Assembly (NCBI GenBank): GCA_963823665.1
Contig: CAWGMQ010000011.1
Span: 736,001 to 800,000 of the forward strand
DNA length: 64,000 nucleotides
DNA from: an uncultured Planctomycetota bacterium
Lineage (GTDB): Bacteria > Planctomycetota > Planctomycetia > Isosphaerales > Isosphaeraceae
Direction of reading: 5' to 3'
How positions within the stretch are numbered: the stretch's first letter is position 1; each line of letters opens with the position of its first letter. The notes below the pieces were generated by a model. The model did not search any database and was not told where the DNA came from. It worked only from the letters and a program-made list of their open reading frames with translations. Shown piece by piece: positions 16,446-23,575 of the stretch. The position numbers and the translations under genes were made by a program.

Positions 16446-16655
16446 TTCATCGACGCCGAGAAGGAGGGTTACGACGCCTACCTCAAGGAGCTGCTCCCCT
16501 ACGTCCGCCCCGGCGGCCTGATCATCGCCCACAACATGAGAAGGCCTGCCCCCAATGAGCGCTACGTCGAGGCGATCACCACCAGCCCCGACCTCGACAC
16601 GTCCTTCGTCCTCATGGACGGCGCCGGGCTCGGGATCACGCTCAAGAAGCGCTGA
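16446..16655 (+). pseudogene. 5'-truncated O-methyltransferase (C-terminal 69 aa)
   Basis: Own translation: FIDAEKEGYDAYLKELLPYVRPGGLIIAHNM...GLGITLKKR*. No start codon or SAM-binding motif I. Confidence 0.8.
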
Positions 16656-16874
16656 GACAAAGCCGGAAAAGCTCGAGCAGACATGCCCCCGCCCTGGTCG
16701 CCGAACGGCTCGCTGTCGAGCCCAGCGCATCAGGGCGGGGCGCTCGGCGCCCTGCGGGAGAAAGAGTGACGGAGCCCTCAATGCAGAAGCTCCCTCCTCG
16801 GCGGCGATTGACTAAATAGTATTGCACGATCATGCGACTCAGGTGGGTGGAACTAGCTTCGCCGGAAGTCCGGT

Positions 16875-16904
16875 GTAGCAGGCACACTCCGTGTGCCGTC
16901 CGCC
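16875..16904 (+). repeat. GTAG-type REP-like palindrome
   Basis: GTAGCA followed by hairpin GGCACAC-TCC-GTGTGCC, intergenic. Confidence 0.65.
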
Positions 16905-17049
16905 GAAGTTGCCGGTCGGTGGCACTGTCCAAGTCAGCGCTCCATGCTCGGGCGAATCGCCGTCCTGGAATCGGGGAAAGCCAATTAGGTCGGAGTCATC
17001 TTTCGAGTTCATCGATCGCCATCGACTTGAGGCGGTAACGCTTAACGTT

Positions 17050-17058
17050 TGGTACATT
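17050..17058 (+). promoter_or_regulatory. Possible extended -10 element (TGgTACATT) upstream of the NACHT gene
   Basis: Consensus-like motif in a locally AT-rich patch about 190 nt upstream of the ATG at 17243. Confidence 0.35.
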
Positions 17059-17242
17059 ACTAACGAAACGGCAATTCGCAATCTTGTGAGTGCGAGGCTC
17101 CCGCCGAGCCGCGCTGGCGCTCGCCCCACCGTCCGACGCCGTGTCCCAGATCGCGAAACTTATTGACGTCGCTCGTCTCCTGGCAGACATGATTGGTCCC
17201 GATCCGACTCGACGCCACCAATGACTGGGAAGAACGCTGGCC

Positions 17243-20200
17243 ATGGCACTCTCCCCGCGCCCACTCAAACAGTACCACGTGTTCCTCGCCTCGCCCGGTG
17301 ATGTCCCGGCGGAACGGCAGCACGTGCGCAAGTTCTTCGACGAATACAACCGCCACACTGCCCACATCTGGAAGGCTCGGTTCGAGGTCATCGACTGGGA
17401 GAACTACGCGACGATCGGCGTCGGCCGTCCGCAGGAGCTGATCACCCAGCAGACCCTGGAAAAGTATCAAGACTCCCTGGCACTGGTCGTGGGCATCATG
17501 GGCCAGCGGTTCGGCTCGCCGAGCGGCAAGGCGGAGTCCGGCACAGAGGAAGAGTTCAACTGGGCGATGGAGAGCCACAAGAAAGACTCTGGCTTTCCGG
17601 AGATCAAGTGGTTCTTCCGCAAGGTGGATAAGCTCGAGCTCCCAGCCGATCCCGACGAGGCCGACGCGGCGCTCGACCAGTGGAAAAAGGTCCGCGCCTT
17701 CCGCAAGCGGATGCAGGATTTGAACGACCCGGTCTTCTACACGGAATACCCAGGCGCCGCCGGCTTCGCCGAGGTGTTCGAGCGCGATCTCAACCAATGG
17801 CTGGCGGATCCGGCACGTCCGTGGGCGGCGGAGCGTGCGGCCTCAGGTGTGCAGCGGACAGCGTGGCCGTCGCACTGCCCGCCGAGTTCGATGCGGAAGG
17901 CTACCAGGCCGCGCTGCTCAAGCGATTCGACAAGCTCAACTTCGAGATGCTCGACACGACCGGCGCGTTCTACAGCGGCGTCCGGCTGTGGAGCGTCTTC
18001 GTCCCGCAGTCGGTGCGGGAATGCCACCAGTACAACCCCCGCCTGCTGGAGATTCCCAAGGAACACCAGGAGCGGCTGCTGAAAGCCGGCGAGATCACCG
18101 CCGCGGAACTGGAGGAAGCCGAGCGGCAGGCCGATCGGCTGCGCCAGGAGTACTTCAGCCAGCCGCTCCGCCCCGTGCTGGACGTCGTCGACGAGGCCCT
18201 CCGGGCAACGTCGTCGCGGGCCGGGCAGAAGCTCGTGATCCTGGGCGACCCGGGTTCCGGCAAGTCGTCGCTGATCCGGTACCTGGCCCTGCGCTGGGCG
18301 CGTATCGCCGAATCGACGGTCCGCGACACTCAACCGATTCCGCTGGTGATCGACCTGCGCGAGTACGGCCGGTGGCAGTGCGAGGGGCGTAAGGGATTCG
18401 TCCGATTCCTGGAAGAAGGCCCGGTCTGGCACGAATGGCGCCGCGGCCTGCTGCCCCGGCTTCTCGCGCAACCCGGTCGCGTGGTGCTGCTGCTCGACGG
18501 GCTGGACGAGGTGTTCGACGTGCAGGCGCGCGAGGCAGTCATCAACGACGTCCAGCGCTTCAGCAGTGAATCCGCCCACACGTCGATCCTGCTGACGTCG
18601 CGCGTCGTGGGCTATCAGCCGCACCGGCTGCGCGACGAAGGGTTCCGTCACTTCATGTTGCAGGACCTGGCCACCGATCAAATCACCGCTTTTGTCGACC
18701 GCTGGCATGCAGAGACCTTCGCCAGCGAGGAGCAAGCGGCGCCGAAAGGCGAGCGGCTGAAAAAAGCCATCAAGGATTCGAAGGCGATCGCCATGCTGGC
18801 CGGCAACCCTCTGCTCCTCACGATGATGGCAATCCTGAACCGCAACCAGGAACTGCCGCGCGATCGGGCCGACCTGTACGCCCAGGCGTCCCGGGTGTTG
18901 CTGCATCAATGGGACACCGAACGGGCGCTGGTGGACTTCCCCGGGCTGCGAGCCGATGTGGGTTTACGCGAAAAGACCGATATCCTGCGCCGCGTGGCCT
19001 TCCACATGCAGTCGGGACCGAGTGGTCTGAAGGGAAACCTGATCGACGGCGCAACGCTTAGCCGCCTGATCGAGGACTATCTGCGTGAAGAGCTGCATTT
19101 CGACCCGGCCCGCGCCGCGGCGCGTGCGGTGGTCGACCACCTGAGGCTGCGCAACTTCATCCTTTGTTTCGTAGGCGCGGACAGCTACGCCTTCGTGCAT
19201 CGCACGTTTCTGGAGTACTTCTGCGCGGCCGAGTTCGTGCACCGGTTCAACGTCACGAAAACTCTGGACATGGACGGACTGATCCAGTTGTTCGACGACC
19301 ACTGCCGCCATGACGAATGGCGCGAGGTCCTGCGGCTGATCTGCGGCCAGATCGACGAATCGTTCGTCGGCAAGATAGTCGAGCACCTGGCCGCGCGGAG
19401 GGTTTCAGAGACCTGGGACGGCGAATCGCCGCGGCCGGAATTGCTGTTGGCGATCGGGTGCTTGAGCGAGGCGCGGAACATCGCACGGCTCGAGGACTTT
19501 GCGCGACTCTCGTCGACGCGCTACTGCGAATTTACATACCTGGGGACGGCGTAAAGGAGTTCCACGACCGGCTCCTCGCTTCGCAGCGGGAAATAGGTAC
19601 CCGATGGCCGGGAGCCGGGGCACTCTGGACGACGGTTCTCAAGCGCGAAAGAGAAATCAATGAAACATGGGCGGCGGTATTCCTGGTCAAGTTTCTGGCA
19701 TGCGTTCGCCCCGAGCGACAACTCGTGGAGCAGCTTCTGGCATCGAAGAATTATTGTCTGCGTTGGAGCGCAATTGAGGCGTTGGCCGAGCACTGGCCCG
19801 ACGAGGCGACCCGCGCCGTGCTGACTCGGCACGCCGTACAGGATGGCGAGTACCCTGTCCGTGGCGCCGCGCTTAAGACGTTGGCCGAGAATTGTCCCGA
19901 TGAGGCGACGCGTTCCCTACTGATGCAGCGTGCGGTGCAGGATGACAACGACGCTCCCCGCCAAACCGCGCTTGAGGCGTTGGCCGCGAAGTGGCCCGAC
20001 GAGACGACGCGTGCGTTGCTGTCGGAGCGGGCTGTGCAGGATGACAACGGCGGTCCCCGCCAAGCCGCGGTTCGGGCGTTGGCCGATAAGTGGCCCGACG
20101 AGACGACGCGTGCGTTGCTGTCGGAGCGTGCGGTGCAGGATGACAACGACGTTCCCCGCCAAGTCGCGCTTGAGGCGTTGGCCGATAAGTGGCCCGACGA

Positions 20201-22085
20201 GACGACGCGTGCGTTGCTGTCGGAGCGTGCGGTGCAGGATGACAACTACGCTCCCCGCCAAGCCGCAGTTCAGGCGTTGGCCGCGAAGTGGCCCGACGAG
20301 ACGACGCGTGCGTTGCTTTTGGAGCGTGCTGTGCAGGATGACAACAACGGTCCCCGCCAAGCTGCGGTTGAGGCGTTGGCCGCGAAGTGGCCCGACGAGA
20401 CGACACGTGCGTTGCTGTCGGAGCGGGCGGTGCAGGATGCCAACTACGATCTCCGCCAAGCGGCGGTTCGGGCCTTGGCCGCGAAGTGGCCCGACGAGAC
20501 GACGCGAGCCCAGTTCGCCAAGTGGACGACCGAGGCGGCAGCGCCCGATGTACGCAGCGCTGCGGTTCAGGCGTTGGCCGCGAAGTGGCCCGACGAGACG
20601 ACGCGTGCGTTGCTGTCGGAGCGGGCTGTGCAGGATGACAACGGCGGTCCCCGCCAAGCCGCGGTTCGGGCGTTGGCCGATAAGTGGCCCGACGAGACGA
20701 CGCGTGCCCTACTGACGCAGCGTGCGGTGCAGGATGACAACTACCCTCCCCGCCGAGCCGCGGTTCAGGCGTTGGCCGATAAGTGGCCCGACGAGACGAC
20801 GCGAGCCCAGTTCGCCAAGTGGACGACCGAGGCGGCAGCGCCCGATGTACGCAGCGCTGCGGTTCAGGCGTTGGCCGCGAAGTGGCCCGACGAGACGACG
20901 CGTGCGTTGCTTTTGGAGCGGGCTGTGCAGGATGACAACTACGCTCCCCGCCAAGCCGCAGTTCGGGCGTTGGCCGAGAAATGGCCCGACGAGACGACGC
21001 GCGCCCTGCTGATGGAGCGTGCCGTGCAGGATGACCACCGCGCTCCCCGCCAAGCTGCGGTTGAGGCGTTGGCCGATAAGTGGCCCGACGAGACGACACG
21101 TGCGTTGCTGTCGGAGCGGGCGGTGCAGGATGCCAACTACGATCTCCGCCAAGCGGCGGTTCGGGCCTTGGCCGCGAAGTGGCCCGACGAGACGACGCGT
21201 GCGTTGCTTTTGGAGCGGGCTGTGCAGGATGACAACTACGCTCCCCGCCAAGCTGCGGTTGAGGCGTTGGCCGCGAAGTGGCCCGACGAGACGACGCGTG
21301 CGTTGCTGTCGGAGCGGGCTGTGCAGGATGACAACAACGGTCCCCGCCAAGCTGCGGTTGAGGCGTTGGCCGCGAAGTGGCCCGACGAGACGACGCGTGC
21401 GTTGCTGTTGGAACGGGCTGTGCAGGATGCCAACTACGATCTCCGCCAAGCGGCGGTTCGGGCCTTGGCCGCGAAGTGGCCCGACGAGACGACGCGAGCC
21501 CAGTTCGCCAAGTGGACGACCGAGGCGGCAGCGCCCGATGTACGCAGCGCTGCGGTTCAGGCGTTGGCCGCGAAGTGGCCCGACGAGACGACGCGTGCGT
21601 TGCTTTTGGAGCGGGCTGTGCAGGATGACAACTACGCTCCCCGCCAAGCCGCAGTTCGGGCGTTGGCCGAGAAATGGCCCGACGAGACGACGCGCGCCCT
21701 GCTGATGGAGCGTGCCGTGCAGGATGACCACCGCGCTCCTCGCCGCGCAGCGCTTGAGGCGTTGGCCGCGAAGTGGCCCGACGAGGCGACTCGCGCCTTG
21801 CTGGCCCAGCGGGTTGTCCAGGATCCGGACGATCAGGTGCGAGGCCTCGCCTTTTCCGCGTTGGCCAGGACCCACTCCCCGATTGGCCGCATCCTGCCGA
21901 CACGAGACTTGGATGGCGTGGGCCCGTATCTCGATCCACTGCAACCGATTCCACTTGACAATATCCGAAAGGCCGCCAAAAGGCTCAGCATCCACCCCGA
22001 CGAAATCGACGCCCAGGTCGCGTCGCTCTCGGCGCACTTGGGTTGGGATATCACCCGCGGCGCGAAGCCATCGGGTAAAGAATAG
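17243..22085 (+). CDS. NLR-like STAND protein: DUF4062 (TIR-like) + NACHT + HEAT-like repeats (frameshifts near 17850 and 19500)
   Basis: VFLASPGDV..ER..GQRFGSP..SGTEEEF (DUF4062); Walker A GDPGSGKS; Walker B LLLDGLDE; NPLLL; FVHRTFLEYF; then about 21 33-aa repeats. Three overlapping ORFs in domain order. Confidence 0.85.
19839..21870 (+). repeat. Tandem array of 99-nt (33-aa) HEAT-like coding repeats, about 21 units
   Basis: Units start at 19839, 19938 ... 21819 at an exact 99-nt period. Consensus QDDNxxPRQAAVxALAxKWPDETTRALLxERAV. Confidence 0.97.
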
Positions 22086-22209
22086 CTCAGAAGCAATCCT
22101 ACCAGAAAGGAACGCGAACTCGGCGAGTGAGCGCGCGAATCCAACCGGACCGGAACGCAACGGATACGGATCGCACACACCGCCCGCCATGCCCCGCCCC
22201 CAAATCCCA

Positions 22210-22238
22210 TTGAGCTTGGACCACCGCCCCGCTAAGCT
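22210..22238 (+). promoter_or_regulatory. Putative sigma70 promoter TTGAGC-N17-TAAGCT (copy 1)
   Basis: Canonical spacing, conserved in both duplicated units. Confidence 0.55.
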
Positions 22239-22276
22239 GACGTGTGTCGCCGTCGCGGCAATGGAGTCCAGCCGCC

Positions 22277-22879
22277 ATGCAAACTCAACTCGTCATGATG
22301 CTGATCCTGGCTTCAACCGCTCAGTTGAAAGCAGACGACAGGCCCCGTCCCGAGCCTCCGCGCGTCTGGCCGGTGACTACCATCCACTTCCGGACCGCTG
22401 GCGAAACTCACGCCCTCACGCTCGAAATGCCACCGCCGGCTGCCGCGGACGCCGAGGACGACGATCCGCCTCCCGCACAGCCGGTCGGGCGTTTCAATTT
22501 GAATACCGCCATGCTGGATCGCGACAACTTCGACCGCTGGCTCTTCCCCCGCGAGCTCTCGGAACGCGCCCGGTACGATCATTTGAAGGAAATCCTCGAT
22601 GCAAGGATCGTTGTCGTGGCCCAGGCGAACAAGCTGACAGACCACGAGCGCGCCAAACTCCGTCTCGCCGGACGCGGAGACATCAAGCGATTCTTTGATG
22701 AAGTCCAGAAGCGGAAGGATCAGTTCGAGATTGACAGAAAGTCTTTCAACACCGGCCTCGCAACCCTGCGCCGCCTCGACGAGCTCTCGCCAACCTACCG
22801 GGACGGCCCCTTCGGCGCTGACTCGCTCTTCGTGAAGATACTTCATAAAATCAGGAACGACCGGCAGACTGGCGGTTAG
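22277..22879 (+). CDS. Hypothetical exported protein, tandem paralog 1
   Basis: Signal-like N-terminus, AKLRLAGRGDIKRFFDEV motif, GGAG upstream; paralog of 22982..23575. Confidence 0.8.
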   Translation: MQTQLVMMLILASTAQLKADDRPRPEPPRVWPVTTIHFRTAGETHALTLEMPPPAAADAEDDDPPPAQPVGRFNLNTAMLDRDNFDRWLFPRELSERARYDHLKEILDARIVVVAQANKLTDHERAKLRLAGRGDIKRFFDEVQKRKDQFEIDRKSFNTGLATLRRLDELSPTYRDGPFGADSLFVKILHKIRNDRQTGG

Positions 22880-22914
22880 CGCCGGCGGTCCCACATTGGC
22901 ACCCCCCAATCTCA

Positions 22915-22943
22915 TTGAGCTTCGACCACCGCCCCGCTAAGCT
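22915..22943 (+). promoter_or_regulatory. Putative sigma70 promoter TTGAGC-N17-TAAGCT (copy 2)
   Basis: Duplicate of 22210-22238, 705 nt downstream. Confidence 0.55.
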
Positions 22944-22981
22944 GACGTGTGTCGCCGTTGCGGCAATGGAGTCCAGCCGCC

Positions 22982-23575
22982 ATGCAAACTCAACTCGTCA
23001 TGATGTTGATCCTGACTTCAACCGCTCAGTTGAGAGCAGACGAGAGGCCCCGTCCCGAGCCTCCACTCGTCTTGCCGGTGACCACCATCCACGTCCGGAC
23101 CGCTGGCGAAACTCACGAGCTCACGCTCGAAATGCCGGCGCCGGACGACGAGGGCGACGATCCGCCTCCCGCACAGCCCGTCGGGCGCTTCAATTGGAAT
23201 ATGGCGATGCTGGATCGCGACAACTTCGACCGCTGGCTGTTCCCACACGAGCAATCGGAAACCGCGCGGCAGGAGCATTTGAGGGACATACTCGACGCCA
23301 AGATCGGTGTCGCAGCTTCGGCGCACAAGCTGACGGATCTAGAGCGCGCCAAGCTCCGTCTCGCCGGACGGGGAGACATCAAGCGATTCTTCGATGAAGT
23401 CCAGAAGAGGAAGGATCAGTTCGAGACCGACAGAAAAAACTTCAATACCGGCCTTGAGGCGCTGCGCCGTCTTGACGCGCTCTCGCCAACCTACCGGGAT
23501 GGTCCCTTCGGCCCTGGCTCGCTCTTCGCCAAGACACTCCACAAGATCGACAACGACCGCAAGACTGGCCGATAG
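22982..23575 (+). CDS. Hypothetical exported protein, tandem paralog 2
   Basis: Collinear and highly similar to 22277..22879. Confidence 0.8.
   Translation: MQTQLVMMLILTSTAQLRADERPRPEPPLVLPVTTIHVRTAGETHELTLEMPAPDDEGDDPPPAQPVGRFNWNMAMLDRDNFDRWLFPHEQSETARQEHLRDILDAKIGVAASAHKLTDLERAKLRLAGRGDIKRFFDEVQKRKDQFETDRKNFNTGLEALRRLDALSPTYRDGPFGPGSLFAKTLHKIDNDRKTGR

Follow-up and report, generated by a model that had tools for sequence, protein, structure and literature searches.

DUF4062 is described in three 2026 preprints as a TIR-like domain of anti-phage proteins, and in the characterized members both NAD+ loss and defence depend on a glutamate at position 87-108 (10.64898/2026.09.04.749371, 10.64898/2026.05.01.722283, 10.64898/2026.06.25.731849). 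The first of these preprints names the domain NIR, tests a NIR-STAND-TPR protein (PsAvs2) and a NIR-HEAT protein (Vulcan), and mentions NIR in further NLR-like proteins with various repeats. Here, we analyze a gene that joins NIR to NACHT and HEAT modules, located at 17243..22085 on the plus strand of a 64,000-nucleotide stretch from an uncultured Planctomycetota bacterium (assembly GCA_963823665.1, contig CAWGMQ010000011.1, positions 736,001 to 800,000; the whole stretch is hereafter called the window). The gene shares with PsAvs2, Vulcan, Vesta (10.64898/2026.09.04.749371), Swarozyc (10.64898/2026.05.01.722283), and Evangelion (10.64898/2026.06.25.731849) an N-terminal DUF4062, an aromatic first-strand motif, and a glutamate near residue 100. 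Both PsAvs2 (NIR-STAND-repeat) and Vulcan (NIR-HEAT) resemble it in parts; however, PsAvs2 combines an Avs2-type STAND module with TPR, whereas the window gene has NACHT and HEAT, and Vulcan is a direct NIR-HEAT fusion, a definition from which the intervening NACHT module excludes the window gene. The available text of the NIR preprints does not describe a NIR-NACHT-HEAT family, homogenized repeats, or a swappable cassette.

Three further groups are comparable in other respects. The bNACHT receptors, NLR-related anti-phage proteins of bacteria, share a NACHT module with the D[GAS]hDE Walker B signature, which was defined in the same work, and HEAT is listed among their sensor types (Kibby et al., bioRxiv 10.1101/2022.07.19.500537). 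Directly C-terminal of its NACHT module, bNACHT01 has a rapidly diversifying region (SNaCT), in a position like that of the cassette described below (10.1101/2022.07.19.500537); in contrast, the variable region of the window gene is an internal cassette between conserved flanks, followed by a homogenized array and a wHTH cap. The term DUF4062 is absent from the main text of that preprint (10.1101/2022.07.19.500537). Fungal HNWD/HET-E proteins and other high-internal-conservation (HIC) NLRs share near-identical repeats in which a few residues are hypervariable, units that are gained, lost, and shuffled, and old alleles that persist across lineages (PMC13449251). The effector of the window gene differs in being NIR, and its swapped pre-array cassette is unmatched in the available text on HIC NLRs, which already reports bacterial NLRs with highly conserved repeats of ANK, TPR, WD40, or LRR type (PMC13449251). 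Finally, the array matches the alphaRep artificial binders (PMC3754942) in sequence, in fold, and in its variable positions. The natural unit is 33 aa long and differs by an extra variable site (position 12) in the first helix. Designed alphaRep units have 31 aa.

Each part of the architecture is already known. Over its full length, the gene matches no named system, and its sequence suggests that it works like an Avs or bNACHT receptor equipped with a NIR effector. The PADLOC profile PDC-S60 matches only the N-terminal DUF4062-like region (E 1.4e-27 here; about 1e-25 to 1e-27 overall), and in five full-length homologues the match covers positions ~3-183 of 906, the N-terminal fifth of the profile, rather than its full length. 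No Avs profile of PADLOC 2.0 or NCBIfam gave a hit, although these libraries may lack newer Avs families, and the only NCBIfam match was a partial one to the EruA NACHT, far below cut-off. Neither the accessions of four homologues nor the term DUF4062 occurs in the seven supplements of PMC13581612 that were searched. A literature search, with most subscription papers and the figures and supplements of preprints outside its scope, found no description of a DUF4062-NACHT-HEAT family or of a swapped pre-array cassette. Our preferred reading, to which we assign a probability of about 0.6, is that the gene encodes a horizontally spread, stand-alone bacterial NLR-like receptor, in which ligand binding by the cassette and the HEAT groove would lead through NACHT oligomerization and NIR clustering to NAD+ hydrolysis and abortive infection.

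Domain composition and reading frame

In the assembly, the locus consists of three successive open frames (17243-~17845, ~17860-~19500, and ~19506-22085), over all of which intact homologues are collinear. The predicted effector is the 198-aa TIR-like NIR/DUF4062 domain (17243..17836), with F14 and the presumed catalytic E104 (codon 17552-17554), the latter contained in an intact SGTEEEF motif. Pfam recognizes DUF4062 (PF13271) marginally at aa 13-108, with 24.9 bits against a cut-off of 24.7 (E 2.4e-5), and one full-length homologue scores 20.4 bits. The NACHT module, with its helical and winged-helix parts (17860..19490; PF05729, E 5e-11, 43 bits against a cut-off of 26.7), has an intact Walker A motif (GDPGSGKS, 18244-18267) and an intact Walker B motif (DGLDE, 18496-18510) that fits the NACHT signature. 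Next come a hypervariable cassette of ~95 aa (19490..19760), 21 HEAT repeats of 99 nt (19791..21869; HEAT_2, E 4e-72), and a family-conserved C-terminal cap (21870..22082), in which Pfam, run on the isolated tail, finds wHTH-HSP90_Na-assoc (PF24410; 35.9 bits against a cut-off of 23). A preliminary description of the locus had proposed an NLR-like DUF4062-NACHT-HEAT protein with intact Walker A and B motifs, and the Pfam domains, the motif positions, and the homologues bear this out; neither the cassette nor the cap appeared in it. The effector-NTPase-repeat order in a single polypeptide is seen in homologues and here would extend across two frame breaks.

When the N-terminal 198 aa were used as the query against 1404 candidates, 498 longer proteins matched, the best 120 of which are 72-92% identical. 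Among these 120, 110 are at least 480 aa long, with Walker A kept in 106 of the 110 and Walker B in 108, and the 33-aa repeat unit is present in 75 of the 120. E104 is invariant in all 118 aligned sequences (the window gene and 117 of the 120 best hits), as is F14 in 28 of 28. Sequence and profile searches matched the NIR domain to no solved structure, and Foldseek gave no match at E <= 0.001 for the NIR model or for a model of repeats plus cap. The best fold matches of the NIR model (predicted local confidence, pLDDT, 78) are TIR domains, namely TIR-STING (Z 10.1, root-mean-square deviation (rmsd) 3.4, 134 aligned) and Cat1 (Z 9.3, rmsd 3.7, 134 aligned). The published NADase role of TIR-like DUF4062 domains and the invariant E104 together favour the earlier proposal of a nucleotide-cleaving effector, and we infer that the NIR domain of this gene would hydrolyze NAD+. 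Elsewhere the domain is combined with different modules: TIR in protein P0030, an FGE-sulfatase-type protein in P0107, and, in P0077, NACHT with a C-terminal PNP replacing the repeats.

Both frame breaks are very probably assembly or sequencing errors, because relatives are in frame at both positions and rpoB of the same assembly is frameshifted too. Homologues show the frame switching near 17840-17860 and at 19506. At break 1, in the linker (17843..17862), contigs of relatives carry a net +4 nt in all four runs aligned, and six of the eight intact loci tested aligned, differing by +4, -2, or +1 nt. At break 2 (19495..19506), the alignment with homologue P0008 changes frame at 19506, and relatives' contigs in three of four runs measure 287 letters across 19471-19761, compared with 289 in the window. 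These length differences restore the reading frame at both breaks. In addition, a contig of 200 nt that covers 19358-19556 with a single mismatch (99% identical) contains one gap somewhere in this stretch, which spans break 2. The contigs aligned at the breaks come mostly from relatives rather than from host-strain reads. A search of sequencing runs with 17000-20000 listed no RNA data set for this region, and none of the runs contained half of its sequence words. As a single-gene control for assembly frameshifts we used rpoB, which changes frame in the host assembly and reads through in two relatives. The gene is frameshifted both in the host genome (G000:C3; L061 ~266) and in a same-genus genome, G029 (L065 ~1387), so split genes in these two genomes are not readable as pseudogenes without reads.

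Alternatively, the locus might be a true pseudogene in the host strain, a formerly active receptor inactivated as toxic or obsolete, which we consider unlikely. Two breaks within about 2.5 kb would fit such a history, as would the breakage of both paralogues in the host genome and the form of break 1, which amounts to two extra bases relative to locus L031 outside any homopolymer. Moreover, among 36 related genome loci, 18 read at least 935 aa in one frame, 8 run off the contig, and 10 stop early, one of the latter in an isolate genome; thus, truly broken copies exist in the family. The evidence on the breaks also derives from the assembly and relatives' contigs, not from raw reads of the host genome. 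Against inactivation stand the frameshifted rpoB, the split appearance of several further window genes, the integrity of all catalytic motifs, the lack of premature in-frame stops in the homologous parts, the short terminal branch of the gene on the tree described below (0.021), and the single gap of the 99%-identical contig in the break 2 span. A single gene interrupted by assembly indels remains the preferred interpretation.

The cassette and the repeat array

The cassette lies between the end of NACHT and the first regular repeat and is mostly 90-110 aa long. It was delimited in 62 of the 120 proteins and in the window gene, with an automatic end point that is overlong in about ten of them. 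At 45% identity, the resulting 63 cassettes fall into 34 clusters, and cassette identity barely tracks that of the NACHT core (Spearman 0.11). In 58 pairs with cores at least 90% identical, the cassettes have a mean identity of 32% (33 of 58 below 30%), and in pairs with 95-97% identity in the core and 83-100% in the cap they are mostly 24-48% identical. Even homologues that are 94-97% identical on both flanks have cassettes that are only ~30% identical. In an alignment of seven close homologues, identity stays within 0.77-1.0 through column 700, drops to 0.18-0.48 over columns 721-860, and rises again at the array. Fourfold-degenerate sites of loci L032 and L037 agree at 319 of 358 positions upstream and 47 of 52 in the cap, compared with 4 of 16 in the cassette, which is chance level in a sample that is small and dependent on a poor alignment. 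Such saturation of silent sites is unattainable by faster protein evolution alone and points to replacement by, or retention of, long-diverged alleles via recombination. The window cassette itself is 70% identical to that of P0008 (core 85%) and 17-33% identical to those of its three closest cores (90-91%), and relatives' contigs skip exactly the cassette stretch (joint 19471-19761). By these sequence comparisons, the cassette is a discrete allele block exchanged independently of its flanks, and it is a strong candidate for the determinant of specificity. Involvement of a diversity-generating retroelement is unsupported: the cassettes differ by indels and silent saturation, and the sole nearby match to a reverse transcriptase profile is a DnaG primase.

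The array (19791-21869) comprises exactly 21 units of 99 nt, or 33 aa, without an indel (TRF: period 99, 19.8 copies, score 2239). Units 3-20 have a mean identity of 82% in DNA and 75% in aa, with six fully identical pairs, and the longest exact duplicate within the array is 266 nt. Units 1, 2, and 21 are more divergent, and three units are of a distinct W-type, found at 20484..20582 and as identical copies at 20781-20879 and 21474-21572. The count of about 21 repeats given earlier therefore stands, whereas calling them near-identical slightly overstated the case. The aa identity of units 3-20 lies within the range that defines HIC NLRs (similarity of ~0.7 or more), taken here as plain identity rather than T-REKS Psim, and internal identity is at least 70% in 21 of 47 homologous arrays. 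Among 49 complete homologues the number of repeat hits varies from 1 to 15, and seven have a single hit, so that array length may matter little. The array of 21 repeats is the longest seen, and the short-read assemblies may under-count repeats.

The repeats are alphaRep-like. In sequence searches of the PDB the array matches alphaReps only, and a model of the last repeats plus cap (pLDDT 96.5, two helices per unit) has alphaRep as its top fold match (Z 16.1, rmsd 5.5, 173 aligned). Unit positions 21, 22, 25, 26, 29, and 33 align with alphaRep positions 18, 19, 22, 23, 26, and 30, which are those randomized in the designed proteins and form the variable concave binding face (PMC3754942). Variable residues occur at unit positions 12, 21, 22, 29, and 33, and less so at 25, position 12 being variable though off the alphaRep-equivalent face. 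We calculated nonsynonymous over array-wide synonymous diversity (pN/pS) for the 12 distinct non-W units of the window array and obtained 1.47 at the six alphaRep-equivalent positions versus 0.18 elsewhere. In 12 other arrays (loci with at least three units detected) the values were 1.40 and 0.42, and among randomly drawn sets of six positions only 0.011% reach the variability of the alphaRep-equivalent set. As a sign of diversifying selection, this pattern is confounded by recombination, and pN is above array-wide pS but, in other arrays, not above local pS. At codons 21-22 of the 12 other arrays, local pS is 0.66 versus a pN of 0.51, and site-wise positive selection is therefore not cleanly shown. 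The repeat variation may represent old codon blocks kept in a homogenized frame rather than fresh positive selection.

Units of the array recombine. They are mosaics, with 70 of 190 site pairs incompatible and a minimum number of recombination events (Rm) of at least 6, and incompatibility is lower between neighbouring sites than after shuffling (permutation p = 0.002). For 69 of 81 units, the closest other unit lies in the same array. The W-type unit, present in three copies here, also occurs at loci L025 and L029 and in 7 of the 120 proteins; over its central 48 nt it shows 77% identity with the W unit of L025 and 38% with its own neighbours, whereas its ends are 90% like the neighbours. No silent donor cassette for this unit was found in the host genome outside the array. 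The proposed likeness to HET-E is thus apparent in the recombination of units and in the focus of variation at the putative binding face. The suggestion that the HEAT array is the variable sensor is partly upheld, by variation at the alphaRep binding-face positions; however, the most variable part of the sensor is the ~95-aa cassette that precedes the array.

It is conceivable, though in our view doubtful, that specificity lies in the cassette, together with the cap, and that the homogeneous array acts as a spacer of variable length or has arisen as a by-product of unequal recombination, its 21 copies being a runaway expansion. Such a division of labour is compatible with the rest of the NAD-depleting receptor reading. 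It would account for the range of 1-15 repeat hits among complete homologues and the seven with one, for a cassette far more divergent than the array, for the high local pS at codons 21-22, and for two paralogues in the host genome with less homogeneous arrays (47% and 60% aa). It fits poorly with the focus of aa variation at alphaRep binding-face positions, in the window array and in 12 others, and with the retention of the W-type unit across distant hosts, given the similarity of its central 48 nt to L025 (77%) rather than to neighbouring units (38%); possible under-counting of repeats in short-read assemblies also tells against it. In the preferred reading, both parts contribute to ligand binding. 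A more specific version of this reading, which we hold tentatively and consider less likely than not, is a two-tier recombinational diversifier: the cassette would be exchanged, even between distant bacteria, with a conserved NACHT arm on one side and a homogenized arm of HEAT repeats on the other, and the repeats would form a natural alphaRep library drawn from old unit alleles such as the W-type, retargeting one NADase towards new proteins of phages without a dedicated mutator enzyme.

Distribution and genomic surroundings

The gene is patchily present among kin and has spread horizontally. The 36 genome loci, at 60-90% identity, belong to Planctomycetota, Acidobacteriota, Pseudomonadota, Chlorobiota, Cyanobacteriota, Verrucomicrobiota, Bacteroidota, and others, and of 121 genomes from the family of the host, 17 have any match and only four exceed 70%. 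The phyla are intermingled on a 36-row tree with mostly weak support (it comprises the window gene, two paralogues, and all of the 36 loci except L058-L060, hence 33), and the Planctomycetota rows require eight changes. In G029, the flanking genes are syntenic, the slot is occupied by other genes, and the receptor gene is missing. No relative was found in viral contigs, and plasmids yielded only distant DUF4062-annotated matches, below 60%. The host was correctly recognized as a planctomycete, as indicated by PSCyt1, PSCyt2, PSD1, and DUF1501 genes in the window and by the closest homologue found, which is in an Isosphaeraceae record; the receptor family, by contrast, is not specific to planctomycetes.

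The host genome contains two paralogues of the same architecture (L022 and L023; G000:C4:810600-814600 and 824800-828040), ~13 kb apart and sister rows on the tree. Their N-terminal domains are 73-75% identical to that of the window gene, both are frameshifted in the assembly, and their arrays have 12 and 4 motif hits with 47% and 60% aa identity. A remoter NACHT protein (G000:C8:616068-617219; L007, L024), at ~30% identity, has an open frame of 1032 aa.

Neither a sigma-70 promoter nor a terminator was found upstream of the window gene. A multi-copy, non-coding interspersed element of ~180 nt lies there at 16810..16995 (strand unassigned). The region 16640-17240 has 47 genome matches, most of them over 16810-16995, and the element, which is MITE- or REP-like, has ~40 genome copies and many in G029; a link to the gene is not established. 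Closer to the gene, a short GC-rich repeated element (17066-17158) has a few further genome copies and matches G029 twice at the syntenic slot; it sits just upstream of the point where gene content differs from G029. The neighbours of the gene in the window encode kinases, ECF sigma factors, a sulfatase, a beta-lactamase-like protein, and a DUF58/vWA protein. Downstream, 22206-23574 holds a tandem duplication of a ~210-aa gene without a Pfam match; at the syntenic site, G029 has one copy of this gene. Elsewhere in the window, 17-552 encodes another internally conserved repeat protein, with 126-nt WD40 repeats (85% matches, 4.3 copies) clipped by the window start, and at 52636-59841 genes with PIN, NYN, and Uma2 domains are interspersed with purine biosynthesis genes.

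Proposed mechanism and significance

STAND proteins in general pass through a cycle of autoinhibition and oligomerization. In the receptor proposed here, the sensor end would keep the NACHT module as an inactive monomer in the resting state. A foreign protein, most likely from a phage, would bind a surface to which the cassette and the concave side of the HEAT solenoid both contribute, whereupon NACHT would exchange nucleotide and oligomerize, clustering the NIR domains; these would hydrolyze NAD+, leading to abortive infection of the host cell. The ligand, the oligomerization, the NADase activity, and the role in defence are suggested by analogy with PsAvs2, Vulcan, Swarozyc, and the bNACHTs. 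Specificity would be re-rolled at two levels. At one, long-diverged alleles would take the place of the cassette, for which the conserved NACHT end and the homogeneous repeats could plausibly provide homology arms; at the other, repeats would be gained, lost, and shuffled.

Several observations weigh against this proposal. In the effector, the TIR fold scores (Z 9-10) exceed those of unrelated flavodoxin-like folds by only about 1-2, the DUF4062 score is barely above its cut-off, and the correspondence of E104 to the tested E97/E98/E108 is suggested by motif position rather than by direct alignment. The early-stopping loci, one of them in an isolate genome, and the high local pS at codons 21-22 count on the same side. 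So does the genomic context. Pfam identified no defence gene in the window within about 15 kb of the locus (48 open reading frames (ORFs)). For relatives, neighbouring ORFs were called heuristically at 20 of the 36 loci and in two paralogue regions (n = 225, excluding the downstream ORFs of L032, which are syntenic with L026); 25 of the 225 match PADLOC, mostly via generic domains, and the context is convincingly defence-like at about 3 of 23 loci, a count given without a random-gene background. According to Pfam, an intact homologue in genome G043 has cas3, cas2, cas1, and a WYL regulator directly downstream (L063:1-6200), two HNH genes and an AAA_21 gene flank the homologue at L031, and a TIR-CHAT-ATPase is near that at L029. 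A defence-island setting is thus not recognizable in the window and weak in relatives.

This weak association would also agree with a role in conflict or self/non-self recognition outside phage defence, for example in sensing the effectors of competitors, predators, or plasmids or in kin discrimination akin to that of fungal het genes, with NAD+ depletion or an ADP-ribose signal as the output. Such a role would further suit the repeat dynamics, which match those of fungal allorecognition NLRs (PMC13449251), and the fact that no conserved partner gene was seen among the scanned loci. We nonetheless judge it quite improbable. All bacterial DUF4062 proteins whose tests are described in the available text of the three preprints are anti-phage, one homologue lies beside cas1, cas2, cas3, and a WYL regulator and another between HNH and AAA_21 genes, and a distribution over unrelated phyla at 75-90% identity is more in keeping with a shared threat than with kin recognition. 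A phage-responsive receptor thus remains the preferred reading.

If only the architecture holds, the gene is one more NLR-like defence gene. Beyond that, it would extend the NIR NADase to a widespread NACHT-HEAT family, one that addresses how single-protein bacterial immune receptors acquire new specificities. Because dozens of natural alleles are 94-97% identical except in their cassette and repeat content, sensor specificity should be mappable by simple swaps. The family also suggests that evolution varies the very HEAT positions that engineers randomize in alphaReps.

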